A stretch of 64,000 bases of DNA from a virus: IMG/VR virus record IMGVR_UViG_3300029906_000002, positions 76,507-140,506 of that record. The stretch is one strand, 5' to 3'. The translations under genes were made by a program, and so were the position numbers. The notes beneath the pieces were generated by a model. It did not search any database and was not told the origin of the DNA. It saw only the letters and a program-made list of their open reading frames with translations. Shown in pieces: positions 8,378 through 42,081 of the stretch (the stretch's first letter is position 1; each line of letters starts with the position of its first letter).

Positions 8378-8907
8378 TTAGCTGTATGGTAAAAACGATA
8401 GGATCATTATATATCTTTCTTCCCGTGGTTCAAAATAGGTATCTTCTATAAATGAAGGATATAATGTCTGATTATTTATAATTGTGAATGTACTTCCAGA
8501 TGGCATTTCAAGAGAGTAACCAGTACCTTGTGTATATGATTCATTGTTAGTTATGGTATCAAGGTTTAAATCAAGTTGAAAATTAATAACAAACTCTGCA
8601 TCAGCAAAAGGAAATCCATGAGTATAATAGGATATTGAAGTCTGTATAATATTATCATCACGTAATTCAATAATATCATTAGTCTGTACTGATTTTGTTG
8701 CTTCATAAACATACCCTAATTCATCACGCAGAATTTCGGTCATCATTGTACCAACCTGTAAGTCGGTTTCTTTTAAGTTGTACAAAACATTACACCCTTT
8801 GTATATATCAAAAGCAGGCGTAAATATTATATACTTTATTCCGTTTTTAAGGTTAGCGTACTGCCCCCCCCCATTACCATATCGTTGTATATTAATCTTT
8901 TACGCAT
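8378..8907 (-). pseudogene. Poly-G frameshifted gene (OFF state; 176 aa if G10)
   Basis: ATG 8907 MRKRLIYNDMVM then G9 (8864-8872) gives a 23-aa peptide ending at TAA; one extra G reads GGGQYANLKNGIKYIIFTPAFDIYKGCNVLYNLKETDL straight into ORF 8378-8785. Confidence 0.8.
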
Positions 8908-8914
8908 ATAGATT

Positions 8915-9865
8915 TTACTTTACACGAATAAATGCACGAACATAATTGTTTTTGTCCTTATTGTAGTTATAGACGAAGCCACCGTACGTGCCAACAAAAC
9001 AAGCTTCTGTATTATTGTACTCCGTAGAAGACCAATAGCTGTCGCGCAACTCTACTCCAACGGACGAACCATACGCTGTACGCATTTTGTTTATTGCCTC
9101 ATTTATTTTATTGAAAGGAGGCATTATGTAACCTAATTCACCACAAGCAGGCAAATACCAATCACCTTGTTGAGTACCTTCGGTATGAAACATATCACAG
9201 CATGAAGCAGCAGGATAATCAGCTTCGGTTGTCGCATCAGGTTTCCATGAATTATAATCCTTAGTTCCTCTTTGCGTTATTATTTTTGCTGTATTTCCGA
9301 TTCCATCAAAGTCAGCTAACACATTTCTTGATGAAGAAGGTGAGGAGGTTTGATAATACCCAGGATTTCTACTTCCGTCAGTCAAATATGGCGATGGAAT
9401 ATAAGGCGATGAATGATAAAATGCATCCGTATCATGAGTGCATTGTGTACCGTTAAATCTATCACTGGGTAAATAACCAATAGTATCTTCACCTGTTGGA
9501 ATACCATTTGATGTGTTACCAGTAGGTACTCGGTCTAAATTAGGTAATCCTGAGATATCAGTACCATATCTTCCCCAATACATATATTGTTTAGATATAC
9601 TGCCTATTGAAGGTGTATCACAACTCATAGTCTTCAAACTCATCACCCCGCAAGAACCGTCACCATAAACATCGTGATAACCAGGCACAACTGCAATACC
9701 AATAGGTGTATATCTGTCAACTGGATAGGTTCCTACACTCCATGTATCACCATTAGCAATTATCAGACTATCATTTGTCTTATCATAAAAACATATATCA
9801 CAAGCTTTTGATTCACTTGGATTTATACTACCTCCGCTTGTTACTTGCAAAATCCTTCTTCTCAT
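8915..9865 (-). CDS. Putative receptor-binding protein with CLec/DUF1566-like DGR-target C-terminus
   Basis: 316 aa; DFDGIGNTAKII, GDWYLPACGEL and terminal YWSSTEY...YNYNKDKNNYVRAFIRV motifs typical of DGR targets; MRRRIL..GG leader. Confidence 0.75.
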   Translation of the reverse strand: MRRRILQVTSGGSINPSESKACDICFYDKTNDSLIIANGDTWSVGTYPVDRYTPIGIAVVPGYHDVYGDGSCGVMSLKTMSCDTPSIGSISKQYMYWGRYGTDISGLPNLDRVPTGNTSNGIPTGEDTIGYLPSDRFNGTQCTHDTDAFYHSSPYIPSPYLTDGSRNPGYYQTSSPSSSRNVLADFDGIGNTAKIITQRGTKDYNSWKPDATTEADYPAASCCDMFHTEGTQQGDWYLPACGELGYIMPPFNKINEAINKMRTAYGSSVGVELRDSYWSSTEYNNTEACFVGTYGGFVYNYNKDKNNYVRAFIRVK

Positions 9866-9942
9866 AAAAAAAGAGCTTTATAGTTTCCTACAAAGCTCAT
9901 TACAAATTATCAAATCAAATCAAGCATGAAGAATAATTTCTA

Positions 9943-10992
9943 TTAAACAGCCTCAACGTAGCTACCTCCTCCAACAGTTGCAAGCGTTGCCAAGTCGTCA
10001 TAAACAGGGATTACTGTATCACGGATGCACTTGTACGTCACGCCGTTTTGCGAGTAGTATTTACCCAATTCAAGACGCATGTTTCCATTGTAAGGAATCG
10101 GGTCTTCAAGCGTTCCAGCGTGCGTTTCATCTATTTCTTCGTACAAAGAAGCTGTAGCGATTCCTGGAGCCCAATTTTCCTGCAACTGATGCTGTTGCCT
10201 TACCTTGAACAGTTTGTTCTCATGACGCAGCTTGAAGCCGACAGCAACACTCTTTCCGAACTCTGCACCCCTCTTTCCCCATACGGGATAGAGCATCTTC
10301 ATAGATAAGGCTGTGCTATCGTCATCAGAAGCTGTAAACTCATTAATATGAAGAGCTATGTAGGACGCCACTTGACGATTGAAGGAAGTCTTTTCTTCTT
10401 CGTTATCGAGCTTTTGCAGAGATTCTGTAGTCATGGCAGCTTGCACAGGCAAACCTTCATTGACTACTATAGCTTGGATATCCTCAACTTCGGTAGCCGT
10501 GTTGATTTCAAGTTGTTTCTGGGTAAGCCAAGATTGACAATCGGATTCTTGCTTGGCAATAAGGTCGATGACATGGTTGACCAGATTAGGGTCGATATCC
10601 TGCGTGCCAATCTTTACGGTGCTCTTGCCAATAGCCAATGCGCGGTTTACTTCGTCGCGCTTCTGCAAACGCTGCGTGCTGTTCAACCAAACCTGTTCGT
10701 CGTTTACCGTGAACTTGTTGTAGTTGTCGTAGTAATACGTGCTCAGCTCGCTGTTCTTTGAGCGTCTTGCTTGCGCGGGCGTGATAGGATTGATAGCTTT
10801 GTTGATGATTTCTTCAATCGTAGCTGTAGGATGCTCAGACTTGAATGCAAGCTGCTCCTCATCAAGCAAAACCCACTTGTTATTCTTATAGTCTTCGTAT
10901 GTGGTGCCAATATTGTCGTAGAGTTCAGGATCCAACATCTCTTCAAACTCTACATAATGGCCAGCGATATCTTTCTTTAAATATGTAAACAT
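9943..10992 (-). CDS. Tail-fibre assembly-like protein with C-terminal carbohydrate-binding-like module
   Basis: 349 aa; central FTVNDEQVWL region resembles DUF4376; C-terminal WAPG..SLYEEIDETHAGTLEDPIPY...YYSQNGVTYKCIRD. Confidence 0.6.
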   Translation of the reverse strand: MFTYLKKDIAGHYVEFEEMLDPELYDNIGTTYEDYKNNKWVLLDEEQLAFKSEHPTATIEEIINKAINPITPAQARRSKNSELSTYYYDNYNKFTVNDEQVWLNSTQRLQKRDEVNRALAIGKSTVKIGTQDIDPNLVNHVIDLIAKQESDCQSWLTQKQLEINTATEVEDIQAIVVNEGLPVQAAMTTESLQKLDNEEEKTSFNRQVASYIALHINEFTASDDDSTALSMKMLYPVWGKRGAEFGKSVAVGFKLRHENKLFKVRQQHQLQENWAPGIATASLYEEIDETHAGTLEDPIPYNGNMRLELGKYYSQNGVTYKCIRDTVIPVYDDLATLATVGGGSYVEAV

Positions 10993-11009
10993 GATTTATC
11001 CTCCTTACT

Positions 11010-11708
11010 TTAAGATTGTGCTGCGAATCTGATATAACGCTTAGAGTTGTCGAACACAACATTGATTTCGGCGTAACCGTTTGCAGGAACAGTAAGCGAA
11101 TCGCCAGACATGTTCACATAAGAAGAAGTGGTCGGCATGGATACTGTTCTGTCAGAGCCTGAAGAGTTACGCACAATAATGTGCAATTCCTTACCATCAC
11201 CAGGATTGTTAGCTACAGTGAAGCTCTGGTTCGACGAGATGGTAGCAATGACCAATCGCTTGCTGGTTGCCACGTTAGACAGACTTGTTGTCGTGTTGTG
11301 ACCCGTGTTACGATTGTAGTCAGCAACCGCATTAGAAGTACCGGATGGAACAGTGGGAATGCTCGGCTTGTTAGACAAGTCGTTGTAACTTCCCGATGTA
11401 GCTACTGTAGCCAATCCGCTTACTTGTGCAGCAGTATGGGTATGACTGGCAGCGGCCTTACCATCCAACTGGTCCTGCAAATTAGTAACGTCAGAAATAG
11501 CATGGGTATGTACTGTATCAGCCTTACCAGCCAATCCTTGTGTCAACTCTTCTTGGGTAGCGAAATCTCCGCTTGCTCCATTCGAGTTGTGGTTTAAGAC
11601 ACCAAAAACATAGGTGTCGCCTGTGTCTGTACATTGATAAACCCCTCCCTGGTGGGTTTCAGCAACGTAAGAAGCCGCAGGTCCTTTGTAAAAATTCACG
11701 TATGCCAT
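11010..11708 (-). CDS. Short tail fibre with HxH phage tail repeats
   Basis: KADTVHTHAISDVTNLQDQLDGKAAASHTHTAAQV and ATVATSGSYNDLSNKP motifs. Confidence 0.75.
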   Translation of the reverse strand: MAYVNFYKGPAASYVAETHQGGVYQCTDTGDTYVFGVLNHNSNGASGDFATQEELTQGLAGKADTVHTHAISDVTNLQDQLDGKAAASHTHTAAQVSGLATVATSGSYNDLSNKPSIPTVPSGTSNAVADYNRNTGHNTTTSLSNVATSKRLVIATISSNQSFTVANNPGDGKELHIIVRNSSGSDRTVSMPTTSSYVNMSGDSLTVPANGYAEINVVFDNSKRYIRFAAQS

Positions 11709-11827
11709 AGAACTAAAAAATGTTAGTTATCAGTTACAAAGTTCGTAAGAAAAGAGAATAATAAAGCTGTATGATTAATTGATTATGTTATTCAAATCTG
11801 TTTATATCCAAATCGAGACATCCACAA

Positions 11828-11968
11828 TTATCGATACCCACCATCCTCTTCTACACTTCCCTTATCAACAGTACCTACATCAGCCGACAAACACCCTCTT
11901 TCAGATTTTTCAATAAACAGATAATCAGGAAGTCCGTAGTGTTCAGGATTCAAAAGAACATGCTTCAT
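11828..11968 (-). CDS. Small hypothetical protein
   Basis: MKHVLLNPEHYG..., 46 aa, after AT-rich leader. Confidence 0.35.
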   Translation of the reverse strand: MKHVLLNPEHYGLPDYLFIEKSERGCLSADVGTVDKGSVEEDGGYR

Positions 11969-12052
11969 AATAGTTGAATTTAAATGATTTATAAACAACA
12001 AAAGAGAGCAATACAACATTGCCCTCTTTCATCAATAGTTATGTATCAATTT

Positions 12053-12904
12053 TTATTGAACGGTTTGAAGTGTAAGTGCCGTTTCGAGGGCTTCTACGCG
12101 GGAAGTCAAATCATTGATTGTTGCAGCTTGGTCGGCTACAGTCTTGATAGCAGCATCAAGAGCCTTCAAAGCGGCAACAAATTGCGTTTGACCATTTAAG
12201 TAATTCGTATCGGACAAGTCGGGCATTACCTGATTCGGATTCTCCACACCGAGAACGGTCTGAAGGTTTACGAATGTCTGTGAGGTAACTTCCTCGTTAT
12301 CCAGAATTGCCTTGTGAAGTTTTCCGATAGCAGTCTCGAACGTATCTCCGGCAGCTGGTTCAAGTTGTGCATTGGCCAACTCCGAAGGAGCGTAATCAGC
12401 AGACAACTCAGTAGGTACTTCCTTGTAGGAACCATCATTAGCTAAGAATGATGCACCGTCACCATCAGTCAAAATCCCGTCAACCTTCTGCTTGTCAGCG
12501 GCTGGCATAAGACCGTTGGATGAAGTTGTGGCATCAGGAATAGTGACTACGCCAGTTTGCGGAGCCAGGTTCTCAGCTGCACCAGCGAGCTTCACGCCTT
12601 TAAGGGAAGCTGCGTTAAGAATGGCCAGATTGTCATTCGTAGCTTTGATTTCCTCGTCAAGCTGCATAGCTGCATCAGTCAGGTTAGTTTCCTTGCTGAT
12701 GTAGTTTGCGCCATCGTAAGTGTTCGTACCGATCTGTGAAGACCAGTCCGTACCAGCTGAACAGTTATAGAACTGTCCATGAGTGTAAATCTGCTGCGTT
12801 TCCTTAATCCAGACGATGCTGGTGTCAAGGATGTTACCTGCTTCCAATTCTTTGTTGAAAGCTTGGTAGGTTTTGAAGTGAATCAATTTCTTATTGATTG
12901 CCAT
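12053..12904 (-). CDS. Tail/collar fibre protein
   Basis: N-terminus KLIHFKT..F......LDTSIVWIKETQQIYTHGQFYNCS shared with 13069-14733; IPDATTSSNGLMPAADKQK fibre repeat. Confidence 0.75.
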   Translation of the reverse strand: MAINKKLIHFKTYQAFNKELEAGNILDTSIVWIKETQQIYTHGQFYNCSAGTDWSSQIGTNTYDGANYISKETNLTDAAMQLDEEIKATNDNLAILNAASLKGVKLAGAAENLAPQTGVVTIPDATTSSNGLMPAADKQKVDGILTDGDGASFLANDGSYKEVPTELSADYAPSELANAQLEPAAGDTFETAIGKLHKAILDNEEVTSQTFVNLQTVLGVENPNQVMPDLSDTNYLNGQTQFVAALKALDAAIKTVADQAATINDLTSRVEALETALTLQTVQ

Positions 12905-13068
12905 ATCACAAATAGTTTAATAGGTTGGCGAACGGCTTATGCCGAGCTTTATTGTAAAATAGTGTAGTTAAACGAATTTATAAATCGGTATTACAAAAAA
13001 AGAAGAGGTGACGAAGTTAATCGCCGCCTCTTCAATGTTACCCTAAATATCTAAATCTCAAAACCTTA

Positions 13069-14733
13069 TCAATCGCCTTCGTACCATTCCAGAGAAGCCT
13101 CCAGAGCATCCAGGGCAGTCTTCAAAGCCTTACCTTGTTCGGCAGACAGAACCTTGTCAGTGCCACCCGTAGTCAGGTCGTTAACGATATCGGCATCTTG
13201 CAAAGCGGCTGCGGCGGCGGCAGCAGCTTCTTTTGCACGGGCCTCAACCTTAGCGATAGCCTGGTTCAGATTGTCGGTTGCGGCAACATCTGCGGCAGTA
13301 CCGGCAGCATAACCAGTAGCCAAGATATCAGCACCGTTCAGTACGGGGTTCGTATTGATAGCCTTGCCGTTTACAGTGTAAGCTTTGATAGCCGCGATTT
13401 CAGTGGCGTTGTCGTCAGCCTTCTTCTCAACCTTACCGATAGCTTCAGCGATAGTATCACCGGGCTGTACATCGGGATTTTCAGGAGCGGACGGCTTTTC
13501 GTAATCGGTAATACTACCAGCACCTGCATCAGGCTTGGGAGCTTCACCCGGCTCAGAAGGATCAATACCGGCAGCAGTTGCCAGAGCGTTCAATACCTTC
13601 TTATCCTTCAACGACATTACACCGTCAGCAGTTTCCGTAGCAACGGGAATGGTCACATTGCCAGCAGTGGGGCTGATAGCGGAACCAGTGCCCGGAGTAA
13701 CGGTCTTGACAACTTCTGCATCCAGAGCTGCGATAGCGTCAGCATTCGTCTTAACCTGTGTGTCGATAGCTGCAACGGCACCAGCCAAAGAACCGGCTTC
13801 GCTGCCATAGTTCAAACCAGGCAGAGTAGCATCAACATCACCCAGGTCCTCGCTCAATTCAGGAACGGAAGGAGTATCACCACCTGCGCCAGTCAAACCA
13901 GCCAAAGCAGCCTTATCAGCAGCCGACATCAAACCTGCGGCAGAATCCGTAGCAGCAGGAATGATAACCGTACCACCGTCGCCAGTAGAGAAAATGTTTG
14001 TAGCACCTGCCTTATCAGAATCCGTAAAGGCAATAGTGATGTTCGTTGCAGACGGAGTAACCGCGCCAAAACCTGTTACAACAGTCGTTGGAACGCTGTT
14101 CAAGGCATCGCGGTTGGCCTTACCCTTGGAGCCTTCGTAAGCAGTACCAGCTACTTCACCGAGAACGATAGAGGGAGAAACCTCTGCCATGTTGGCACCA
14201 TCCCAACGGTACAGCACGTTCGTGCGGCCTTGGTCGTCGGCACCACGACGGTTGTACAGAACCTGAGTTTGCGGGTCAGTCTCAACCCATACGCCTTCTG
14301 CGCCTTCGATGATCTTCTTAGATGTACTGTTGAAATAGAACTTGCCTTCCTCAACAGGATCGGGGTTAGCATCAACGAAGTTCTCCAAGCCGAGCACGTG
14401 GCCGATAACGCCGGAAACCAGATCGCTATTGATCTTGCCGTTTTCATCGAACAGCTTCGTGTTCAGAGCTTCAATCAGACCGTTCAGCGTCTTACCCTGC
14501 TCAGCGGACAAAGCCTTGTCTGCGCCGCCAGTCGTCAAATCATTGACGATAGCTGCCTGGATCAGCTCGCCGATGCTTTCAGCGTCTTGGCTGCAATCGA
14601 AATAAATTCCGTGAGTGTAAATCTGCTTGGTATCCTGAATAAACACGATGGTGGTTTGGGGGATACCAGGAGTGGTCAAGGCAGTTTGGAAAGCTGCCAG
14701 TGTCTTAAAATAAGCAAAGCGATTACTAATCAT
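13069..14733 (-). CDS. Tail fibre protein
   Basis: 554 aa Ala/Gly-rich; IVNDLTTGG.DK.LSAEQGK at both ends; IPAATDSAAGLMSAADK repeats. Confidence 0.8.
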   Translation of the reverse strand: MISNRFAYFKTLAAFQTALTTPGIPQTTIVFIQDTKQIYTHGIYFDCSQDAESIGELIQAAIVNDLTTGGADKALSAEQGKTLNGLIEALNTKLFDENGKINSDLVSGVIGHVLGLENFVDANPDPVEEGKFYFNSTSKKIIEGAEGVWVETDPQTQVLYNRRGADDQGRTNVLYRWDGANMAEVSPSIVLGEVAGTAYEGSKGKANRDALNSVPTTVVTGFGAVTPSATNITIAFTDSDKAGATNIFSTGDGGTVIIPAATDSAAGLMSAADKAALAGLTGAGGDTPSVPELSEDLGDVDATLPGLNYGSEAGSLAGAVAAIDTQVKTNADAIAALDAEVVKTVTPGTGSAISPTAGNVTIPVATETADGVMSLKDKKVLNALATAAGIDPSEPGEAPKPDAGAGSITDYEKPSAPENPDVQPGDTIAEAIGKVEKKADDNATEIAAIKAYTVNGKAINTNPVLNGADILATGYAAGTAADVAATDNLNQAIAKVEARAKEAAAAAAAALQDADIVNDLTTGGTDKVLSAEQGKALKTALDALEASLEWYEGD

Positions 14734-14763
14734 AATTATTCAAATAATTAAGTGTTAATGTTT

Positions 14764-15195
14764 TTAGCCTTCATACCAATAATAGAGGTCGTTTACCTTT
14801 TCGAGGATATAGCCGGAAACACCATTTTTGTTGGCATTGACCAGCTTTGTTCCATCCCAATACACAAGGACGTTCTTGTTGGAGCCGTAAGTAGCTACGT
14901 TAGCAAATTCGCCTTCCTTAAGCTCTTTGCGGTGCCAACTGTTTTCCGTCCATTCATATACGGTATGGTTTTCCGTACACAGGTAAACCTTCTTTTCGGT
15001 GGGTTGTTCAGCAGTTATCTCTGCTTCTGTGGCTTTGAGTTCGTCCACGTTTACGACAAGACCGTTCCCGTCCATGCTCACGCCATTCAGGTATATGACC
15101 CGTTTGTCCAAGGCAAAGAATACCATGTCGAGATGGATACCTGCGGGCTGGTAATCGCGGAAGTAACCTCTTGCTAATTTGTATGTTTTATTCAT
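14764..15195 (-). CDS. Small structural/fibre-associated protein
   Basis: 143 aa; VFFALDKRVIYLNG resembles the N-terminal module of neighbouring fibres; ends WYEG like 13069-14733. Confidence 0.7.
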   Translation of the reverse strand: MNKTYKLARGYFRDYQPAGIHLDMVFFALDKRVIYLNGVSMDGNGLVVNVDELKATEAEITAEQPTEKKVYLCTENHTVYEWTENSWHRKELKEGEFANVATYGSNKNVLVYWDGTKLVNANKNGVSGYILEKVNDLYYWYEG

Positions 15196-15221
15196 TGTTG
15201 AAATTACTTTTTGCGTTATGA

Positions 15222-15251
15222 TGGGGGAGCGGAATTGTCCCGCTCTCCCGT
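15222..15251 (-). terminator. Hairpin/terminator between fibre genes
   Basis: GGGGAGCGG...CCGCTCTCCC stem. Confidence 0.45.
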
Positions 15252-15260
15252 AAAATAATA

Positions 15261-18200
15261 TCAGTTGCCTTGTGATTCAAGGGCGGATAAGCGCTCCTCA
15301 ATCTTGCTGATCTTGATGTCGTATCCGTCAAGCGTAACTTTCATGATGCGAGCTATCTGACCAACCATACCCATGTTGTACGTGTTCAATCCGTACAGGT
15401 CGTATGAGAAGACATTCTCGATGCTGCCTACTACCAGATAAGGCTGTCCTACTAAGTAAGGATTAGAGGAAGCGTCATACGGCTTGCCATTCACATTGGC
15501 AGGATTGCCAAGGTCGTCAACGTAGGATTGTTCGAGCTTGCTCAACAACTGGATGGTATATCCGCCGGAGAAGATTGCCGGGTCGAAGTCACCGAACATC
15601 TCAGCCTTGCTGTACATAGCATTAACATCATCCATCAATGCAAGCAACTTGTCGTCATTATAGGTAGGACGCTCTTCGCTACCATTCATATTGAACGGAA
15701 GCTGAGCGGAACCCATATCTACCTTATCCCATTTGGATACCATAGCAATGTTTACAGCAGTGCCATTCGTTGTATTTCCAAGGATGGTGTCGTGATTGGC
15801 TAAGACGATAGACTTGCGTCCGGGATTATCCTCGGTAGCTACATCGGTCCATTCTACCTTCTTACCCAAAGATTCTTCCAGTTCAGCATCCTTGCTTGTT
15901 CTTGCTTCTGCTTCTGCCTGCAAATTGTTTTGCAAGTTGGTATCGGCAAGAGAACGGGCATTCGTTTCTTCGGCAAGATCTGTTATGGAAGCCTTCTCAG
16001 CAATCTGCGTAGTGATGGCAGCAACGACATCATCATTATCAGCCAACTTATTCGCAATCTCTTCAAGCGTATCAAGAGCTTCGGGAGCTGCGCCAACAAT
16101 TTGATTGATACGGTCGTCCACATCGGAAGCTGTTTGATAATCCGAATCGTTTTCAAGCTCGCTGACCTTTGTAGGAACAACGATGGCATCAATCTTCTCA
16201 TTCAATGCGTTGACTTGGAAATCGACATCGGATTGGTTGGCTTTCAATGCAACCTCATCCTTGGTAGCGTAGTTATCCGTTGAAGGAATATCGCTTACGA
16301 ATGCCAGATCGCTGCTCGCAACCTTGATATTGGAATTGCCTTCGATAACAGTGCCGTCAAGATTGATAACAATCTCATACTTGGTCGGCATATCGTTTCT
16401 CGTATCAAGTCCAATGACAACCATCTTAAGTTGGTTGGCGGATTCAAATGCGACATACTGAATCGGCATCTTATAGTAATAAGGATTACCGCTCAGCTGT
16501 ATGCCGTATCTCAAATAGAACTGACCTTCTCTTACGATGAGGTTTTTCAATTCAACCGCATCGGCAACACCAAACCAACCGAAGATTTCCTCCTGCGTGT
16601 ACACCTTGTCTTGCAAAGTGCGAAGCGGGAAGCTGAACTCGACAGGAAGCTTGATATTCTCAATATCCTCCATCAAGGCAAGCTCTTCGTCATCGTTGTA
16701 TGTCGGTCTTTTCTTGGAGCCGTTAAGATTGATGGGAACGGATACTGAACCATAATCAGCCACGTTCCACTTGGACAACATAGCCAGGTTGAATGTCGAG
16801 CCGTTGGTGTCCGTACCAAGCAGGATATCATGATTCTTCAATATGATAGCCTTACGGTTCGGATTGTCGTCAGTAGTCACGTCATCCCATTTGACAGCCT
16901 TCTCAACTTCCTCTTGAATAGCCTTGATAGCGGGACGTATCTCGTTCTCAATAGCACCATTAATAGTATTTACAGCATTATTGATAGCCGTGTTAATGGT
17001 GTTGATTGAGGATACGAGATTGTTATTGATGGTTACATCCGTCTCTTGCAGCTTCTTGATGGCAGGACGAAGCTCGTTGTCGATAGCACCGTTGATAGTG
17101 TTTACCGAATTTTCCCAAGCCGTCTTGAGTTGTGCGATACCGTTTGCCGCATTCGTATTGACCGTATTGATGGTGTCATGGATAACCTGAATGGCACGAT
17201 CATTCGTCGTCTTGTAGTTGGTGAACGCCGTATTCAAATCGGTAGTGACGGTTTTCAGATTCTCGATGGACGGTCTGATCTCGTCATTGATGGCACCATT
17301 GATGGTGTTTACTGAGTTCGTGATGAACGTGTTGATTTGCTCAATGGAACCGTTGACATTCTCATTAAGCTGATTAATCATGTTATCCACACGCTTCTTT
17401 TCGGCATTAAGTTCATCTACAGTAGACAGACTTTCTCCATTGTAAGAGAGGTGCTGGGTAGAACCGAAGATGTTATAAGGAACATCAGACTGTCCAGCCA
17501 TAATGGAACCCGCATCGCCAACCTTAACAAGATTGATTCTCTTGTCTCCAGATTGCTGCATCAACGCAGATTTCTCAGGCAGAACAAGTGCGGATTGTCC
17601 TGTTTCTTCATCAAGGATTGTAAGCTGGATAACGGTATCTGGAATTTCTCCGTATCGTACACCGTTAAGCACGATGAACTTTTTATCCTTGACGAAATAA
17701 ACAACACCTTTACGATTGCCTTCGTCAACGGAATACTTGGCCCAGTTCATCTCGCGCATCTGCACGTCCGAACCATCAGCCCATTTGAATTCAACAACAA
17801 GACCGTTCTCGTTCTTCGACAATTCAATCTGCCCGTGCTTTTGCGACAGACGAAGCGTCACGTACAATCCGTTCTGCGAATCCGTGCAGGTGATCGCCGT
17901 ATCGTTATTGGGAGCAATAACAAGTTCACTGTAGATAACGCCGCTCTGAACAAGCACCTCAATGGTCTTTGTCTTTGAGCCAGTCAAAATCAAACCTTCA
18001 AGCGACAAGCCGAGCTTCTTGCCAGACAACATCTCAAAATCAACAAACGGCTTGCCGATATGCTCGGCATAACCGTTGTCGATATCAAGCTGTGTGGATT
18101 CTCGGCGTGTGATCTTGATGAGATGGTCTTCGGCTTCCAGGTCGAACGCCTTCTCTTCCACACCGTTGGCCCGAATGACATACACAGGTATCAATCCCGT

Positions 18201-30636: not shown

Positions 30637-31548
30637 CTATTTATCGTATAATGACATATCATTAAATACTCTCCTCACGTCTTCTGGAACTTCGTTTGGT
30701 TGTATTCTTTGATTGTTGTAGTAATAATATCCTTGTCCAAATCCTGCATATTCAGGAGCGTAGTATCTGTAATTATTCATCTCGTAATTCCATCTTCCTC
30801 TTCTTACTCCTCCTTTGCTTTTTATCTCATCAGGAGATAACGCTTTGTATGCACTATGCGATTTAAACGCTCCAGATATATCAAGAGGAAGTGTTCTTGG
30901 GTCTACTGATGTTTCACGTACTTGCCCCCCCCCACGATCTATTTCGTGGGTGTAAGGTTTCCCTACGTGACCAAATCCTCCGTTGTTATACATATCGCGC
31001 ATAGCCTGATATGTATTTTTACCAAACTTGCCATCGGTAGCTACGCCAAGGTATTTCTGTATGGCAGTCACATCATCAATGCTATCGACTTTTCCAAGAT
31101 CATAACCAAGTTCTTTTGACAAATTAGCAAGCCTGCTATTTGCTTCATTGAGCCACCACTTTCTATCGCTTGCAACTTTAGCGGCTTTCTGACCGAATCT
31201 CTGTATTTCAGCATTGATATTACCCATTACTGGAGACGGAGCATTGTCAATCGTTGCGGCATCATCCAGTCTTTGTGTAACAGCTTGACCAGGTAGCGGT
31301 ACATTAGGAGAAGTAGGTTCGGGACGATTGGCTTCTGCTCGCTTAGCAGCTTCTTGAAGAAACAAATTCTTATTGGCAGCAAACTGTTGACGCATCCTAT
31401 CGTTGTTGATCTGTGCGTTACCTCTCCAATCCTTGCCATACAAACTCGACATCGTATTGTCGAACAAAGCATTTTGTGCAAATACCTCTCTCCCCTTCTC
31501 CGCTCTTCTTGCTGCCCTTCTGGCCCGTATATTGTCAAACAAACCCAT
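30637..31548 (-). CDS. Protein with peptidoglycan-binding-like motif and in-frame G9 tract
   Basis: DVTAIQKYLGVATDGKFGKNTYQAM resembles PG_binding_1; G9 at 30925-30933. Confidence 0.65.
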   Translation of the reverse strand: MGLFDNIRARRAARRAEKGREVFAQNALFDNTMSSLYGKDWRGNAQINNDRMRQQFAANKNLFLQEAAKRAEANRPEPTSPNVPLPGQAVTQRLDDAATIDNAPSPVMGNINAEIQRFGQKAAKVASDRKWWLNEANSRLANLSKELGYDLGKVDSIDDVTAIQKYLGVATDGKFGKNTYQAMRDMYNNGGFGHVGKPYTHEIDRGGGQVRETSVDPRTLPLDISGAFKSHSAYKALSPDEIKSKGGVRRGRWNYEMNNYRYYAPEYAGFGQGYYYYNNQRIQPNEVPEDVRRVFNDMSLYDK

Positions 31549-34753: not shown

Positions 34754-34778
34754 TTGCTTATATATAAATATGTTTGTT

Positions 34779-34786: not shown

Positions 34787-34803
34787 TACTTGTAAGTTAA
34801 GTT

Positions 34804-35061
34804 TTGAAGGCTATGAAACTAACTATTAAGAACAATAACGGAACAAGTTTCCGATGTGCGAAGAAAAGATTCGGCGGTACGGTTGAGGTTAATAAGGAAG
34901 GTAATAAGATCCGGATAAAACCGAGCCGGGTCGGTAGTTTTACCCGGTGGTGTGGAGGAAAAGTTACTGACAAATGTATCCAGCGTGGTAAGGCAAGCAG
35001 CGACCCCAGAATACGTCGTAAGGCCACTTTTGCCGCAAATGCCCGCAAGTGGTCTAAGTAA
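34804..35061 (+). CDS. Small basic protein, probable internal virion protein
   Basis: IRIKP...GSFTRWCGGKVTDKCI..GK.S.DP.IRRKATFAANARKW resembles a motif I recall from crAss-like virion proteins. Confidence 0.6.
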   Translation: MKAMKLTIKNNNGTSFRCAKKRFGGTVEVNKEGNKIRIKPSRVGSFTRWCGGKVTDKCIQRGKASSDPRIRRKATFAANARKWSK

Positions 35062-35081
35062 TAATACTCAACATATATTTT

Positions 35082-35867
35082 ATGGATAGAATCAAACTAA
35101 ATCTCGCTACTTACGAACCTGTGGACTTCCATATTCCAGAATCCACACCTGATGGATTGGATTATGAAGTTAGTCCACGTATGTTTGACTATGAACCATC
35201 GGAATACGAAGCAACGATAGATGAGCTTACCGATAGCGATGACGACCTGCCGGAAAGACAATCCGAATCATCGGATTCCCGTAACATCTATTCACAAATC
35301 AATCCTCAACTTGCTGAGGCTCTTCGCATACGACCCAAGCAAAAAGCAGCTGAATCAAGCGGACATGCTACGCCCGATTGGTTGTCGTCTACATCGCAGG
35401 TGTCCAAATGGAACAACCCTGTTTACTCTGGCGAATCATCCTGGGTAGCTATGATGAAGCAAGCTTACCGTAATGCGGGTATCACCAATAATGATACCTT
35501 ATCCATGCTTGTTTCACAAGATGCAATAGAATCAAGTTGGGGCAAGTCTGCGCAAGGATCGTTTAACTATGGTAACATCACTACCGGGCGCGGATACAAA
35601 GGCAAGTATGTAGTAGGTAGAGATAAGGATAAAAGTGGCAAGCCTATCACGCAATACTTCCGTGCATACGATTCTGTTGACGAGTATGTGAAGGATAAGG
35701 TTGCATTACTCAAGAGAAGCTATGACTTTACGGGCAACGAAACGCCTGATGAACTTATAAGCAAGCTGAATGGCAATAACCACAAGAAATACAGATACGC
35801 TGAATCCCCGGAATATTCACGACTATTAAAAGATGTATACCAGTCCTACAAAAGAAAGAAATACTAA
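35082..35867 (+). CDS. GH73-family glucosaminidase/muramidase with acidic N-terminal extension
   Basis: AIESSWG...FNYGNI...FRAYDSVDEY...YAESPEY. Confidence 0.8.
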   Translation: MDRIKLNLATYEPVDFHIPESTPDGLDYEVSPRMFDYEPSEYEATIDELTDSDDDLPERQSESSDSRNIYSQINPQLAEALRIRPKQKAAESSGHATPDWLSSTSQVSKWNNPVYSGESSWVAMMKQAYRNAGITNNDTLSMLVSQDAIESSWGKSAQGSFNYGNITTGRGYKGKYVVGRDKDKSGKPITQYFRAYDSVDEYVKDKVALLKRSYDFTGNETPDELISKLNGNNHKKYRYAESPEYSRLLKDVYQSYKRKKY

Positions 35868-35898
35868 ATAATGGTTCATAAATGTGAGATTTTGATTC

Positions 35899-35930
35899 TT
35901 TGAGGCAGGTTAACTCCTGCCTTTTTGTTT
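35899..35930 (+). terminator. Intrinsic terminator
   Basis: TTTGAGGCAGG-TTAACT-CCTGCC then T-run. Confidence 0.7.
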
Positions 35931-35951
35931 TGTTTACAAGGAAGCTATGAT

Positions 35952-35959
35952 TACCTTTG
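35952..35959 (+). promoter_or_regulatory. Bacteroidetes -7 promoter element for groEL operon
   Basis: TACCTTTG upstream of 35984. Confidence 0.55.
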
Positions 35960-35983
35960 TAGGCACCTAAAACAAGAAATACA

Positions 35984-36328
35984 ATGATTAAGAGATTTGT
36001 ACCCATAAAAACCCATTCTATATTGGCTGTAAAATGGGATGGAAACATTGATACGCTTGAAGACATCGAAGCAATAACGGGTAAGTGTACCGTCGAGATG
36101 AAACAGGAAAGTTTTAATACTAAAGGATTCAGATTTGCTGATGATGTCAACTATCTGGTTGAATATGATAATAAGAAGATGTTGTATGTAGCTACCAGTT
36201 ATGGATTGTTCTGTTGCAACGTCGGTGACTATGTAGCCAGTATATATAATAAGGATAAAGACGACATGTTGTCGTCAGTAATTCGTGAACATGTATTTGA
36301 GAAAACTTATAAATTATACGAACAATGA
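35984..36328 (+). CDS. Conserved phage hypothetical protein
   Basis: AVKWDGN...VGDYV...FEKTY pattern; stop overlaps groEL start. Confidence 0.7.
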
Positions 36329-37875
36329 GTAAGATTATTAAGGAAGGAAAAGAGTGTCGCAACAAGGTTGCTGAAGGTATGAAAGTGCTATACGACATGG
36401 TATCCATGACGCTTGGACCAGGCGGAAAGAACGTGGCTATCGTGGATGGATTCGGCGGATTGAAGGTTACCAAGGATGGTGTCACCGTCGCCAAGTCCGT
36501 GAAGATTGACGATGAGGCTATGAATATCGGTGCCATGTTGCTCAAGGAAGCCGCACAAAAGACTTGTGATGAATCAGGTGATGGTACCACTACTACCACG
36601 GTGCTCGCCTACAATCTTATCAAGGAATGCGAGAGCTATATTGACCAAGGCGGTATTACTGTGACCCAGTTACGCAACAGTCTTGCTGAGGCTTGCAAAC
36701 AGGCTGTGGATGCCATCAGAAAGATTGTTATTGAGTGTAAGGATGCCGAGGATATTCACAATGTAGCCCTCATCTCTTCCAATGGCGACAAGATGGTAGC
36801 CGACCTGGTTACTGAGGCTATCGTGAAGGCGACCAAGGATGGCGCGGTATCTATTGAAAACTCCCAAAGCACGGAAAGCTATGTGGATGTTGTTACAGGC
36901 ATGAGATTCGAGAAAGGTTACGAATCGCCGTATTTTATCAATGACGAGAATATGAAGACCTGTACATTTGATGCCCCGAACATTCTCGTCATTAGAGGCA
37001 AGGTAGACAACGTGAACAATCTCGTTACCATCCTCGGCAAGACCATTAAGGAAGGTAACGGTAGACCGGTACTTATCATGGCAGACGAATTCGAGCACGA
37101 CATCATCAACATGCTTGCCGTGAACAAGGTACAGGAAGGTGTGAAGGTTTGTGCGGTCAAATTACCGTCTTTCGGCGAGCAACGTGATGCCATGACGGAT
37201 GATATCTGTAAGCTCATCGGTTGCCAACCTATCACATACGCCTTGTCTGGCGGTTATGACTTCGACATTGAAAAGCATGTAGGCAGTTGCGATAAGATTA
37301 TCGTAGACCTGCACAATACAACTATAGCAGGAGGAGATGGAGACCCTGATGTGATTACGGCAACCATTGAGCAGCTTCGTGAAGAAATCAATCATGAGAC
37401 AGATAGCTCTACAATAGCCCGATTGAAGGAGCGTCTTGTCAAGCTGTCCGGCGGAGTGGCGGTCATTCATATCGGTGCCAATTCGGATACTGAGGTGAAC
37501 GAAATCAAGGACCGTGTAGACGATGCGGTATGCGCCGTTCGGTCGGCCCTGCAAGAGGGTATTGTACCCGGTAGCGGGTTTGCTTACTGCTATGCTATGC
37601 ATGAACTTGCAAAGATGGGCGGGTATGGTAGCGAAGGACGTGAAATACTCATCAAGACGCTGCCGGTCATCCGAAAGATGGTTTACGACAATATGGAGAT
37701 AAGCCATCATAACCAGAGCGAATGGTACGATGCTTCCAATGCTGAAGGCAATGAACTTATGAACAAGGGTATCATGGATCCATTCAAATCTATCCATACC
37801 GCACTTGAGAATGCTGTATCAGTTGCTTGCATGTTCTTGATTATGAACGGCTGCGTAATTGAGAAGCATGAATAA
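36325..37875 (+). CDS. groEL: Phage-encoded chaperonin GroEL
   Basis: [55 protein letters not shown]; no GGM tail. Confidence 0.97.
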
Positions 37876-37932
37876 TAAAAAAGCCAGCTAAAATCGCTGG
37901 CTCAAAGCAAAGATTAGAAAGAAAAAAGAAAT

Positions 37933-38559
37933 CTAAATTCTTCTGTTGATTAGTATGTGGTATTTATCCGTAGTTCGATACAAGTATAATTTTCTGTCAA
38001 GCAACTGTATTACATGCTCCGGCATCATGTTTACAATAAAGCCAAGTAACTTGCCTGCTCTATCATCTTCGCTTAATGCCACTCTAACCATTGTGCCATA
38101 GACAGGGACATCCATCCATACTTCGTCTAAGTCTATAGTTATTGTATTTATATAGTTTTTTCCAAGTGCTACTCTCTTTTGGCTAAGCAATTCATTGGCG
38201 AAAATTCTTATTTCGTTGAAGCAGTAATAATATGGCTTTATACCAAACATGTAATTGTTCGGGTGATCACCGAATTGCTGGTAAAGAAATCTAAAGAACT
38301 CGTATGTTCCTCCAAAATATTTTTGGATAAGCTTATAATTATTATCTCTGTTCACGAAATCGCTAAACTTCTTTCTTGCTATGTTTGCGCTTTCAATCTT
38401 ATATCTGTTTTTCTCTTCGCACACAGCAAGAATGATGGTTATTTTTAAGGCGTCAAGTTCATACTTGTCGTTATACTCGTCCTGGATTCTTTTTACAAAA
38501 TCCAAGAACTCATTGTTTTTACGTTCTTTTTCAGACGCATTGAATTTGAATATTCCCAT
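37933..38559 (-). CDS. Hypothetical protein
   Basis: 208 aa AT-rich ORF. Confidence 0.65.
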   Translation of the reverse strand: MGIFKFNASEKERKNNEFLDFVKRIQDEYNDKYELDALKITIILAVCEEKNRYKIESANIARKKFSDFVNRDNNYKLIQKYFGGTYEFFRFLYQQFGDHPNNYMFGIKPYYYCFNEIRIFANELLSQKRVALGKNYINTITIDLDEVWMDVPVYGTMVRVALSEDDRAGKLLGFIVNMMPEHVIQLLDRKLYLYRTTDKYHILINRRI

Positions 38560-39248
38560 TACTTCTCAATCATTATAGTTCCACCTTCTAATAGTCTTAT
38601 TTTCTCTCCTTCATTATCCACGAACCTTGCAAGCGAATTACCTTTCTTGATTAGGTTCATAATCTGATAAGCCGTATAGTTTATTGTGTCAGCAACCGTA
38701 AATGGTTTATCCAATCCATCTTTGATGATATACACATGTCTATAATTATACGATTCTTCAATCTTGTTTATAAATTCTATATCAGGTATTCCTGGATCTT
38801 GCATGGATTTAATATAGTCCGCATTGCGCAATAAATCTCTTGCGTTTACCATGATCGACAAGCAGTCTTTCTTTACAGCGTTGATACTACTAAAGAATTT
38901 GCTGATATCAACCGATGGAAGAGATTTCATTAACTCTTTCATCCATCTCGGTTTTTCTTGAATACCGATTGTAACAACAATAAAGTTGAGTGAATCTTCA
39001 TTATCAACAGCATCACGAACGAAGCAGTTATTGTCGTACAGGAAATCAATTACGTTATTCAGCATGATTGATTCAATCCATCTGGCATTCTCTTGGCGTT
39101 CGTATGGAATCTGGTAGGTCCTTCCATATTTGAATGAGGTTAGACATCCACTTCTTGATTCGTTTATAAACGCATACGTTCCATCATTTTTATCATCGAA
39201 ATACTTTTCGAGATCGCGAGGCCATGTGTGTCCGTATTCTGACCTCAT
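38559..39248 (-). CDS. Hypothetical protein (start uncertain)
   Basis: Frame open to 39512, but promoter-like TAACTTGC (39303-39310) and a hairpin lie in the extension; ATG 39248 or 39278 more likely. Confidence 0.55.
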   Translation of the reverse strand: MRSEYGHTWPRDLEKYFDDKNDGTYAFINESRSGCLTSFKYGRTYQIPYERQENARWIESIMLNNVIDFLYDNNCFVRDAVDNEDSLNFIVVTIGIQEKPRWMKELMKSLPSVDISKFFSSINAVKKDCLSIMVNARDLLRNADYIKSMQDPGIPDIEFINKIEESYNYRHVYIIKDGLDKPFTVADTINYTAYQIMNLIKKGNSLARFVDNEGEKIRLLEGGTIMIEK

Positions 39249-39524
39249 CTGTTTAATACTAAATAGGTATATGTACATAAATGATTTTGTTTGATTCGTG
39301 GCGCAAGTTATGGATTTTATTTGATATACGCAACACATTGGTACATATAAATTTTTCTCGTAAAAAACATGAGGAAATATTTGGAGGATAGGAAACTTAA
39401 CCGTACATTTGCATACCCCCTTAAATGAAGGGACAATGCAGATCCCTTCTCCCTCTCCCTCCGAACTGAATAACAGTAAGTGTCGGAGGGCTTTTTTATG
39501 TGTGCTTATCAAAACCTAAATGAG

Positions 39525-39788
39525 ATGAATAAAAGAACAAGAAGATTGGCGAGATTCATAGACAACGACCTGAATATGATACTGTTCATCTGCATAGTCA
39601 TATCCATTGTGTCCATGTTTGTTTATTTGATGATTTACAGTTACTATAACCTGTTTACATCTGGCTATACGCCAGAATGGTGCAATATCCTTCCTGCCGC
39701 ATCAGTATGCCTCGGATTCTCGTCCATAATCATGAAGACCATAGCTTGTACAGTTCGGGAAATCATCAAAAGTGTTTATCATTTCTGA
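39525..39788 (+). CDS. Small two-TM membrane protein
   Basis: MNKRTRR... basic start then two hydrophobic stretches. Confidence 0.55.
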   Translation: MNKRTRRLARFIDNDLNMILFICIVISIVSMFVYLMIYSYYNLFTSGYTPEWCNILPAASVCLGFSSIIMKTIACTVREIIKSVYHF

Positions 39789-40606
39789 CCTCTACCTTGC
39801 GATACAAACCGTTTTCTTTCAGGATTCCAAGTGTTCGCATAGATATCATACGAAGCAACCTTCTCTCGTCTGTCCTTGGCCCGTTGAGGTGTATGCTCCA
39901 GTATGGCTTCCTTCTGGGCATCCGCATCACCGGCAACTACCGCTCGTGCCCATTTGTCGAATATCGGCCTGATATTGCCTCTATTGTATCTTGCTTGGGC
40001 ACCCATCAATCTTACTCCCTGACTGATGGTATCAGGTCTATCAGTATAGCCGCTATCCACCAGTTGCTTCATCAGCATACGGTCGTTGTCGCGCATTAGA
40101 GTAACCGCCAAGTCGTGAGCCTCACTCACGGGTATGCCTTCCTTCTCAGCACGTTTTCTTAGCTTGATACCGTCATCATTGGTACGAACATCAATGCCCG
40201 GACCAAAAGCCCGTGAACCGTCAGAATAAGGGAAATAACGGCCATTGCGAAGTCCTACGCTGTGTGGATTCTCAAGATTCTTGATAACCCGCAAAGTCTG
40301 TACATACTCAAGCGGCTTGACCTTGCTTAGGTTCTCACGACCTTTTTCTTTGTCAACAGTTTTCTTTTCAGTAGATGGGTTTATCCAATTATTAGCCATG
40401 TCTTTCAAGTCGTTTACATGGCTTATTAATGAAGGTAAGGAAGCCATTCCAGGGAGCATAGGGAGTATTTTGGCTGCTATGTCGTATAACTCGCCATTAG
40501 CCTTTCCTCCATTGTCAAAACGTCTGGGTTTCTTGTTTAACCGTTGAGAGAAGTAAGCACTACCAATCCAATCAATTAATTTATTTGCTTCCTTATTTTG
40601 TTTCAT
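39779..40606 (-). CDS. Putative lysozyme-like (muramidase) protein
   Basis: LENP...YFPYSDGSRAFGPGID resembles the T4-lysozyme/pesticin catalytic loop; N-terminal RFDNGG motif. Confidence 0.5.
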   Translation of the reverse strand: MKQNKEANKLIDWIGSAYFSQRLNKKPRRFDNGGKANGELYDIAAKILPMLPGMASLPSLISHVNDLKDMANNWINPSTEKKTVDKEKGRENLSKVKPLEYVQTLRVIKNLENPHSVGLRNGRYFPYSDGSRAFGPGIDVRTNDDGIKLRKRAEKEGIPVSEAHDLAVTLMRDNDRMLMKQLVDSGYTDRPDTISQGVRLMGAQARYNRGNIRPIFDKWARAVVAGDADAQKEAILEHTPQRAKDRREKVASYDIYANTWNPERKRFVSQGRGQK

Positions 40607-40683
40607 TTGAAATCAATCTTATTGAAACAAAATTAATTCTGAGTTATTGTTAGTTGGGCATATTAAATAGAATAAAGCTATGT

Positions 40684-41178
40684 TTATGGATTTGGAGGAA
40701 GATTGCTTTTAGAGAAATTGAATATTAATGTGGCTAAACTACCCATCCAACACCACACATAAGGGCATTTACCAGGTAGAATATACATACCAGTTATTTT
40801 TATATTTGAATCATTAGAACTAAGTTCATTGTCATTATTTTGCATTGTATTATTTGATTCAACTGGTTGCGGAATATACGAAAAGACAAGATCAGCTGTA
40901 TTTCCCATAATATCTTCACAGCGTATAGTTAATCCATAATCAAGTACGCTTTGAAATGTCAACGTACTTCCCTGATTATAGACATAGCTGTAATAATCAT
41001 TTTTGTATATAAATGTTGATGATGGGCCGTTTGAAAAAATATTTATTTTATTGATTATAGAATCATCCTGTGATTCAAATCGACCATACACAAAAATCAT
41101 TTGAATATTACTATCGAAACTCGGATATCCAGCTAACCCCCCCCCATTTTCAACAGTTTCAAGTAAGCGTCTACGCAT
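40684..41178 (-). CDS. Poly-G leader protein, ON state (164 aa)
   Basis: MRRRLLETVENGGG; G9 at 41137-41145 in frame. Confidence 0.85.
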   Translation of the reverse strand: MRRRLLETVENGGGLAGYPSFDSNIQMIFVYGRFESQDDSIINKINIFSNGPSSTFIYKNDYYSYVYNQGSTLTFQSVLDYGLTIRCEDIMGNTADLVFSYIPQPVESNNTMQNNDNELSSNDSNIKITGMYILPGKCPYVWCWMGSLATLIFNFSKSNLPPNP

Positions 41179-41206
41179 GAATAAACTTGTATTAAATAGG
41201 ATAAAA

Positions 41207-41695
41207 TTAGAAAATTAAGCCTGTTATATAAACCAGATTCTTGTTATCGTTATTCACAAGTAAAACTATACTAAATGAGACATTTGATTGCTCAATGCCA
41301 GGATTATTTACTGAAAAATTCAATTCATGGTTCGGAACCATAGAATCGGAATGATCTACTACTTCCAGTGACATGACACTGCTATTATAAGTTTTGTCAA
41401 TTATTTCAAGTTGGTCGGCATCATTATGGAAAATAACTATTTGCATAAGCGGAGATAAGCCTGTTAGTTGCTTATCGTATTGTTCTATCGTTACCAGAAA
41501 TCTGTTACTTTCTTGAAATGCGTAGATTTGGCCGGTTCTCGTATAATCTTCCGTGAATATCCGATGCGAATAATCTTGTATACTGTAATTCCAATACACT
41601 CTTTCGTATCCTTCCGATGAGAATTGCAGGGTTATACTACTTATTATCTGGTCGATATTTGCCCCCCCCCCATTTCCAAAGAGACGCTTGCGCAT
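41207..41695 (-). CDS. Poly-G leader protein, ON state (162 aa, beta-rich)
   Basis: MRKRLFGNGGGA; G10 at 41662-41671 in frame. Confidence 0.85.
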   Translation of the reverse strand: MRKRLFGNGGGANIDQIISSITLQFSSEGYERVYWNYSIQDYSHRIFTEDYTRTGQIYAFQESNRFLVTIEQYDKQLTGLSPLMQIVIFHNDADQLEIIDKTYNSSVMSLEVVDHSDSMVPNHELNFSVNNPGIEQSNVSFSIVLLVNNDNKNLVYITGLIF

Positions 41696-41725
41696 AAGAA
41701 ATGAAGTGTTGGAAACAAAATTAAA

Positions 41726-42081
41726 TTATTGAACTGTATTTGGGAAAAACGAATGATAAGCTTCTACTACTTGATTTGATAAGCTTGACATACTATTAAC
41801 ATTTAACATAAACATCATAGATCCGGTACCCGTATAAGCAATCATGTATGAGCTATCAAGTAAATACATTATATTATTCAATAAAAGCACGTACGCAACC
41901 AATATTACATTATGATCGGTTTCATATACTAAGCATCTTGTAATACAACCTTCCGTACAATTAGTGGGAGTGATATTTCGTAATGGTCCTTCAATAGAAT
42001 TTACAATAGGATAACCCATGAATTCAGTATCATTAGGACCAATTACCTCCCCCCCCCTATCATTGTTCTTCTTTCAAACAT
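41726..42081 (-). pseudogene. Poly-G frameshifted gene (OFF state; 118 aa if G10)
   Basis: ATG 42081 MFERRTMI then G9 (42049-42057) gives MFERRTMIGGGR*; one extra G reads GGGEVIGPNDTEF into MGYPIV ORF 41726-42019. Confidence 0.8.

Follow-up and report, generated by a model that had tools for sequence, protein, structure and literature searches.

The 64,000-nucleotide stretch analysed here (the window) is bases 76507-140506 of the 168,622-bp IMG/VR virus record IMGVR_UViG_3300029906_000002, a genome that is 93% complete and has a GC content of 42%. It carries small minus-strand genes in which a short basic leader peptide is followed by glycines, most often encoded by a run of G, and then by a body. 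We conclude that these poly-G runs are genuinely hypermutable, that the clade has conserved them, and that they act as slippage switches (contingency loci) of a 168-kb crAss-like phage; we think it likely that what they switch are leader-attached modules displayed on the virion. Across about 15 assemblies, orthologous tracts span G7 to G15 and occur in every reading-frame state, with the body in frame with the leader (ON) or out of frame with it (OFF). An earlier note, made from the letters of the window, had proposed slippage switches on four of five leader genes (A to E below, A being the exception). The five minus-strand starts, leaders and coordinates that it gave all read correctly a second time, relatives carry both the ON and the OFF forms of the same genes as it had supposed, and the AT-richness that it remarked on is real (36-37% GC compared with 42% for the genome).

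The tracts stand apart from the rest of the genome. There are nine G/C runs of at least seven bases in 168 kb, and the counts of runs of 5, 6, 7, 8, 9 and 10 bases (19, 2, 2, 1, 5 and 1, respectively) form a bimodal distribution; runs of G8 or longer give 11 overlapping matches, compared with 0.16 expected from shuffles. All eight coding tracts have G on the coding strand, and GGG-GGG-GGG recurs even though GGG is the rarest glycine codon, accounting for 7% of Gly codons. Homopolymer tracts of at least seven bases are over-represented in coding regions relative to composition, which is the pattern by which contingency loci are recognized. They are placed within 8-40 codons of the start of small accessory genes, and two larger genes also carry them (G7-G15, including relatives). 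Two tracts of the window had escaped the earlier note (G9 at 30925-30933 and G7 at 45802-45808), and three more lie outside the window at genome positions 68336, 70774 and 144169. At least nine coding tracts vary, so the 16 combinations once suggested for the phage population are an undercount. The tract and leader genes of this genome are listed below, in window positions unless genome positions are named.

Gene A, 316 aa: 8915..9865, minus strand; leader MRRRILQVTSGG, Gly encoded as AGC GGA GGT, no tract, Lcl_C/DUF1566-like C-terminus.
Gene B leader frame: 8836..8907, minus strand; MRKRLIYNDMVM-GGG, stop after 23 aa, OFF.
Gene B tract: 8864..8872, minus strand; G9, OFF.
Gene B body: 8378..8863, minus strand; 161 codons, open, read only with G10 (or G7/G13).
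Gene C, 164 aa: 40684..41178, minus strand; leader MRRRLLETVEN followed by G9 at 41137-41145, ON.
Gene D, 162 aa: 41207..41695, minus strand; leader MRKRLFGN followed by G10 at 41662-41671, ON.
Gene E leader frame: 42043..42081, minus strand; MFERRTMI-GGG-R-stop, OFF after 12 aa, G9 at 42049-42057 and then A-GG.
Gene E body: 41726..42046, minus strand; 106 codons, open, out of frame here.
303-aa gene: 30637..31548, minus strand; mid-gene G9 at 30925-30933, ON.
Site 1 gene: start at genome 68367, just beyond the window; leader MRKRLIEN followed by G7 at genome 68336, OFF.
Site 2 gene, 381 aa: genome 70774; G8 tract 17 codons in, reading G8-A-GG, ON.
403-aa gene: genome 144169; G9 tract 37 codons in, ON.
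Non-coding tract: 45802..45808, minus strand; G7 (C7 on the plus strand) in a stretch of about 700 bp without a credible open reading frame (ORF) (45700-46400).

All three OFF genes of this genome are restored by one added G. In gene B the added base joins the leader to 8378-8863 (530+1 nt), and natural ON proteins of relatives (P0032/P0035, 172 aa) are exactly this +1 G frame; in gene E it joins the leader to 41726-42046 (356+1 nt), and the ON form is found in contig L026. Both repairs had been foreseen from the letters of the window. The bodies have stayed open while out of frame: the chance of meeting no stop is below 5e-5 for B and 1.5e-4 for E. The start of E overlaps the stop of an 86-aa gene, and its tract, G9-A-GG, is an interrupted 12-mer where relatives carry pure G8-G10. 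Two such Gn-A-GG tracts occur in this genome, G9-A-GG (window 42046-42057) and G8-A-GG (genome 70771-70781), and relatives have pure runs at both; the interruptions may be point mutations that damp slippage.

Relatives were reached through 90%-identity protein clusters of the window genes and the contigs that encode them. The comparison set comprises about 15 contigs or assemblies from at least six studies and three assemblers, and the following tract states were found.

Gene B: G9 OFF (window, L030); G10 ON (L029, P0032/P0035).
C-type leader: G9 ON; G13 ON; G15 OFF; at least G14 at a contig end; G7/G10 inferred from proteins P0007/P0004; before other bodies, G8, G9, G10 and G11 OFF.
Gene D: G10 ON in four, including the window; G9 OFF (L023); G13 ON (L025); G11 in run X5.
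Gene E: G8 in four and G9 in two, all OFF; G10 ON in one (L026); G9-A-GG in the window.
F-type gene (absent from the window): G9, G9 and G11 OFF; G10 and G13 ON.
Site 1: G7 and G8 OFF; G9 ON.
Site 2: G8-A-GG ON (genome of the window); G7 OFF.
402-aa gene: G6 ON (genome of the window); ON in P0067; G8 and G9 OFF.
303-aa gene: G9 ON; G8 truncated in three; one relative without a tract.
403-aa gene: G9 ON; G7 OFF.

The survey of relatives for leader, poly-G and frame state therefore found tracts that vary in length rather than invariant ones: each of B, C, D, E, F, site 1, site 2 and the 402-, 303- and 403-aa genes is ON in some copies and OFF in others. In-frame +3 forms also exist (GGGG in P0006 and P0012). 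Among relatives of the 303-aa gene, P0037, P0040 and P0041 have G8, end in ...GGGKYVKHQ and are truncated at 214 aa, P0038 is ON, and P0039 has no tract. Contig pairs from different samples of the same study are 99.7-99.9% identical, with gaps confined to the tracts. Over 2.1 kb, L022 and L023 differ by a single mismatch and by 5 gap positions spread over 3 tracts; L022 and L024 have no mismatch and 4 gap positions, all within one tract; L033 and L034 differ by 3 gaps in 3 tracts; L029 and L030 (two samples of one study, 99.8% identity) have a single gap, at the B tract. Assemblies also fail at these places. Contigs L020, L024, L027 and L028 start or end inside tracts (two ENA contigs end in the E tract), and runs X2 and X8 show contig breaks at the C tract, with neighbouring contigs that overlap by the tract only. 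Run X4 yields two short contigs with the E tract at G9 and G8, at depths of 11.7 and 7.1.

The earlier note had also proposed a shared leader in front of interchangeable bodies, and the comparison agrees with it: the leader is conserved as a peptide, and unrelated ORFan bodies stand behind the same leader. Six genes of the genome begin M-R-R/K-R-L/I ... N and continue into a Gly linker. The codons behind these residues differ (Arg as AGA, CGT, CGC or AGG; Leu/Ile as TTA, CTC or ATT), and residues kept in spite of different codons point to selection on the peptide. The bodies of B, C, D, E, F and site 1 have no mutual similarity by BLASTP, and orthologs at the same position evolve quickly, sharing 32-95% identity in the case of C, 57-95% in that of D and 50-90% in that of E. 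Relatives carry alternative bodies, such as a 165-aa family behind the C-type leader and a 177-aa body behind the D-type leader. When contigs of relatives are aligned to the window, they break exactly at the tracts, with joints from 40608 to 41662/41664 and from 41962 to 42049/42051. The genes that bound these clusters are as follows.

86-aa protein: 42074..42334, minus strand; two hydrophobic segments (holin-like), upstream of the C-D-E array, no hidden Markov model match, kept in all relatives.
275-aa gene: 39779..40606, minus strand; conserved, downstream boundary of the cassette array.
Holin downstream of B: 7958..8347, minus strand; phrog_1299 holin, E 8.4e-8.

Between the 86-aa and 275-aa genes, relatives have none to four cassettes. 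In L021 (an SRR27143258 contig, 10001-11297) the 275-aa gene directly follows the 86-aa gene with zero cassettes, so the C-D-E array is dispensable. The earlier description of both clusters as bordering holin-like genes holds for B, whose neighbour matches a PHROG holin family; for E it goes as far as the two hydrophobic segments of the 86-aa protein.

How do such loci work? The G runs change length by slippage as the phage DNA is replicated, and each change brings a body into register with its start codon or takes it out again, so that a phage population would always be a mixture of genotypes, ON or OFF at each of about ten loci. In the explanation that we consider likely, the bodies would be small, beta-rich modules displayed on or loaded into the virion, and the leader would be the tag that attaches or delivers them. 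Switching would then produce mixed host-recognition types that track the phase-variable surfaces of Bacteroidales hosts, and no diversity-generating retroelement (DGR) would take part. Virion display is suggested by gene context. Genes A and B close a run of fibre genes of 1043 aa (tail-fibre PHROGs), 554 aa (Phage_fiber_rpt, 6.9e-15) and 232 aa (PTR, 5.9e-12), and three other tract genes (site 1, the 402-aa gene and site 2) are flanked by genes that weakly match crAss tail-ring proteins 2 and 1. Because of this context, we favour the view that the bodies are virion-associated, probably host-binding modules. A profile built from the C-type body and run against 1.84 billion representatives found three family members and weak cadherin-like repeat matches (E 5e-5). 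The AF2 model of D has a disordered leader and an all-beta C-terminal half (predicted local distance difference test [pLDDT] 73-81), and resembles only generic Ig-like domains. A word-index protein search with C found its own cluster only, and the ESM Atlas gave low-confidence models for C and D with all feature matches below 0.85.

Several observations weigh against this explanation. Pfam and PHROG searches of all bodies found no family; the AF2 model of C is unusable (pLDDT 43), that of D is weak (mean pLDDT 61), and Foldseek searches of PDB and BFVD with the D model gave nothing at E <= 0.001. The C-D-E array sits between the holin-like gene and an unannotated gene, away from the fibre genes, and sites 1 and 2 also adjoin two Tad2-like anti-defence genes. 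The adhesin and docking roles are suggested by the tail-fibre context and by weak beta-sandwich signals. All tract lengths come from assembled contigs and none from raw reads, and assembly or Illumina errors could account for some of the +/-1 differences at the longest tracts (G13-G15). Of the observed states, about 40% are ON, which is near the one-third expected without selection, and the tract genes may be nearly neutral passengers.

A serious, though less probable, alternative is that the bodies are instead intracellular or injected accessory proteins serving anti-defence, host takeover or superinfection exclusion, with the leader as a packaging tag and switching as a hedge against host defence. 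Small unrelated ORFans that share an N-terminal tag of about 8-12 residues would fit such a role, as would the hyper-plastic arrays (3, 4, 1 or 0 cassettes, depending on the relative), the Tad2-like gene pair near sites 1 and 2, and the position of the C-D-E array among lysis-like rather than fibre genes. Gomez et al. (2025, bioRxiv 10.1101/2025.10.21.683753) tie contingency loci of phage T2 to evasion of host defence. An L/I-x-E motif is present in several leaders (MRRRLLE, MRKRLIE), but the Glu is missing from the D, B and A leaders. Searches for S77 and S78 prohead proteases gave no match, and the S77 control, which also matched nothing anywhere, is uninformative. The A-type body stands at the end of the tail-fibre block and has a sub-threshold match to the lectin-like Lcl_C domain, and the bodies of C and D look possibly beta-sandwich-like, to judge from weak signals, all of which weighs against this alternative.

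The leader and poly-G unit could also be read, jointly, as a three-position switch and a cassette socket, which we hold to be improbable. An aATG-GGG sequence, made of the conserved Asn codon and the first G, is present in the C, D and F types, and gene callers start there (P0004, P0007, P0045 and P0046). Under this reading, the first frame would give a body with the basic leader, tagged for virion attachment or loading; the second would give a leaderless body from the aATG-GGG start that stays in the cell; and the third would give no product. Leader and tract would in addition provide a short homology for the exchange of bodies between phages, a part that is drawn from the exact coincidence of the joints in relatives with the tracts.

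Contingency switching at the DNA level has to be weighed against recoding, in which RNA-polymerase slippage or ribosomal frameshifting would set a fixed mix of frames from any genotype and DNA length variation would be a side effect. We consider this unlikely. The conservation of intact OFF bodies even though most assemblies are OFF (7/8 for E) would suit it, and so would the match of G-GGG-GGG to the slippery pattern X-XXY-YYZ and the rarity of the GGG codon here. However, DNA length changes are seen directly and are the dominant difference between near-identical genomes, and transcriptional slippage is best documented for A/T runs.

Homopolymer sequencing or assembly errors, with every gene in reality intact, are a very unlikely source of the length differences and OFF states. 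Long G runs are error-prone on some platforms, the states are read from contigs, and +1 G repairs all three OFF genes of this genome. Yet lengths differ by 1-6 bases in both directions among the approximately 15 assemblies, with in-frame +3 forms included, and one relative needs -1 G instead of +1. The tracts of SRR20661405 are longer than those of SRR20661431 at C, D and F and shorter at three other loci, and this inconsistent direction argues against a platform bias. Errors would also leave unexplained the codon bias and the conserved placement of tracts after start codons. Systematic under-calling behind the three "+1 G" OFF states was considered separately and rejected, since relatives need -1, +1 or +2 G and pairs differ both ways.

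The remaining candidate concerns gene A, which the earlier note had set apart as a DGR-like target whose mixed glycine codons cannot slip. Its C-terminus does match PF07603 (Lcl_C; E 1.5e-6, 28.9 bits) and phrog_4245 (2.6e-8), but the former score is below the cut-off of 34.9 bits and is the sole basis for the target label. The L030 ortholog has the leader MRRRILEIGNNSG with Gly-Gly-Gly also encoded without a homopolymer, and differs strongly from gene A in the last ~40 residues. A gene-A-like body (329 aa, 36.5% identity) stands behind a G11 tract and a C-type leader in L026, so that freedom from a tract is not a fixed property of this type of gene. That a DGR diversifies gene A while poly-G toggles the other genes is scarcely credible, in spite of the Lcl_C-like C-terminus and its divergence, because no reverse transcriptase (PF00078) was matched in the 93%-complete genome by a search that matched control genomes, and relaxed blastn of gene A against the genome found no non-self match longer than 33 nt that could be a template repeat or a second copy of any part of the gene; barring the missing 7%, these searches rule a DGR out for this genome.

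What is new here is the form that phage contingency loci take in a crAss-like lineage, namely, a common leader peptide, then a G tract that encodes Gly, and behind it ORFan bodies that can be exchanged. The internal-protein (IP) locus of phage T4 reportedly comprises diverse small genes that share a 10-residue capsid-targeting tag. The loci described here resemble it in their diverse small genes, hyper-plastic setting, common N-terminal tag of about 10 residues and exchange of bodies between relatives; unlike them, the T4 locus has no poly-G switch, and the cleavage motif is found in only some of the leaders here, with no match to S77/S78 prohead proteases to accompany it. Secondary receptor-binding proteins of Klebsiella KP32-type phages are said to carry short conserved N-terminal docking peptides. 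The arrangement of such a peptide before interchangeable bodies is alike, the bodies being receptor-binding in the KP32-type phages; those of the present phage are much smaller, at 100-200 aa.

Switching by homopolymers is itself established elsewhere, and the suggestion that nothing of the kind had been described does not stand. In bacteria, 5' homopolymer contingency loci include Campylobacter cj1421/cj1422 and Neisseria hmbR/pilC (PMC8713573, PMC3786947). As in those loci, poly-G lies in the first codons of the ORF, slipped-strand mispairing would turn genes ON and OFF, and many loci give combinatorial states; here the carrier is a virus, so the switch would act on a progeny population rather than a cell lineage, and a shared leader peptide precedes the tract. 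In Campylobacter Fletchervirus, hypermutable poly-G switches receptor-binding genes (Sørensen et al. 2021, Cell Rep 35:109214, via PMC10877375, PMC11959909), a situation called "an exceptional case" in PMC11959909. The two systems share poly-G runs within phage genes, lengths that vary in phage populations, and several genes turned ON or OFF to give subpopulations. They differ in that the present phage belongs to a crAss-like lineage with a probable Bacteroidales host that is not known for poly-G switching, and in that its tracts come directly after a short basic leader common to arrays of small, mutually unrelated ORFan cassettes. The Fletchervirus switches are tied to receptor-binding proteins, whereas a receptor-binding role of the bodies here is putative. 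No relation to Fletchervirus genes was detected, in that there were no PHROG matches. Phages including T2 and T4 have also been reported to carry contingency loci (Gomez, Barrick, Waters 2025, bioRxiv 10.1101/2025.10.21.683753), and these too involve simple-sequence repeats in genes, reversible frameshifts and heterogeneity as bet-hedging. The repeats there are mostly short and scattered across gene classes, whereas the present genome has few, long (G7-G15) and strongly over-represented tracts that keep their positions across the clade and cluster at the 5' ends of accessory genes. Our literature search turned up no publication connecting poly-G tracts to Crassvirales.

The consequences would extend beyond this genome, crAss-like phages being among the most abundant gut viruses. 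Such phages persist for years beside Bacteroidales hosts that escape through phase-varying capsules (PMC8375218). About ten stochastic switches on the phage side would mirror the capsule phase variation of the host and could help explain a stable coexistence without lysogeny. Host-range phenotypes of such phages may vary between clonal stocks. For annotation, gene callers and assemblers misannotate tract genes as truncated, leaderless or missing, and assemblies break at the tracts. The shared leader before exchangeable bodies is in addition a concrete candidate that can be tested as a virion-targeting tag of this phage order.

The phage is, judging from its genes and the samples in which it occurs, a large and distant crAss-like phage of the avian gut. 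We assign it so because of its terminase, capsid and portal matches and because the public runs that contain its DNA are chicken gut, manure and bird metagenomes. The terminase is 27-29% identical to those of classified Crassvirales (Suoliviridae) and 45% identical to those of MT835470.1 and MT835539.1, two unannotated human-faecal phage scaffolds; portal and terminase have strong PHROG matches, and the ortholog of the 479-aa capsid gene has the Pfam domain PF23898 (Crass_capsid). The crAss tail-ring proteins are matched only weakly, since the scores of 21-22 bits stay below the cut-off of 27. No GenBank phage matched the window at the DNA level, tblastn with D gave no match, and only the terminase reached distant relatives; IMG/VR yielded nothing with the D protein, the terminase protein or a degenerate leader-plus-tract DNA pattern. 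A tRNA scan found none, and none of the public runs that contain this phage is an RNA run. A full-length GroEL-type chaperonin is encoded at window 36325-37875 on the plus strand (phrog_5725, E 2e-121), with Cpn60_TCP1 in all relatives.

Beside the tract genes outside the window, the site 1, 402-aa and site 2 genes adjoin the two Tad2-like genes and a Rep3-type initiator. The Tad2-like pair (Thoeris anti-defence 2; E 1.2e-20 and 6.6e-14) lies at L031:12527-13914, genome ~72.5-73.9 kb, and one of the two also holds a crAss001_48-related domain. The Rep3_N-type replication initiator (L031:6654-7637, plus strand; genome ~66.7-67.6 kb; E 2e-11) is on the opposite strand within a tail-like gene block and directly adjoins the MRKRLIEN poly-G gene; an inserted element and an initiator native to the phage are both possible readings of it. 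Two genes downstream of a relative's 403-aa poly-G gene is a TnpB/Cas12f-like gene (L035:4472-5329, region ~145 kb; OrfB_IS605 weak, Cas12f1-like_TNB).

The non-coding tract at 45802 sits after a terminator-like hairpin downstream of a 315-aa gene. It reads G8, G9, G9 and G9 in relatives, and one contig begins inside it; the tract might serve as a phase-variable promoter or an RNA element. Hairpins are also seen at leader genes: a GC-containing hairpin and a T run lie directly before the ATG of gene A (window 9866-9900), of the site 1 gene (genome ~68368-68400) and, likewise, of the L030 ortholog of A. A terminator-like hairpin that abuts the ATG suggests that the A-type and site 1 leader genes may be expressed by read-through or from a promoter that overlaps the terminator.

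Tracts of this kind are present in one of the two human-faecal scaffolds, MT835470.1, where two small genes in tandem each carry a G9 at 25-40 codons from the start; the two tracts are separated by 673 bp, and one of them is ON while the other needs -1 G. In MT835539.1, a G9 (13711-13719, L011) lies in an A/T-rich stretch with no ORF through it. Five other Crassvirales genomes have 0 or 1 G7/G8 run each. Such single runs are found in the classified human crAss-like phages cr115_1 (NC_055898.1, 6009-6016, L041), cr50_1 (NC_055868.1, 6875-6881) and cr10_1 (NC_055875.1, 8976-8982); those of cr115_1 and cr50_1 are inside a large structural gene, annotated in cr115_1 as a lipocalin-like, BACON-domain protein. 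The three runs might be single contingency sites in better-known crassviruses.

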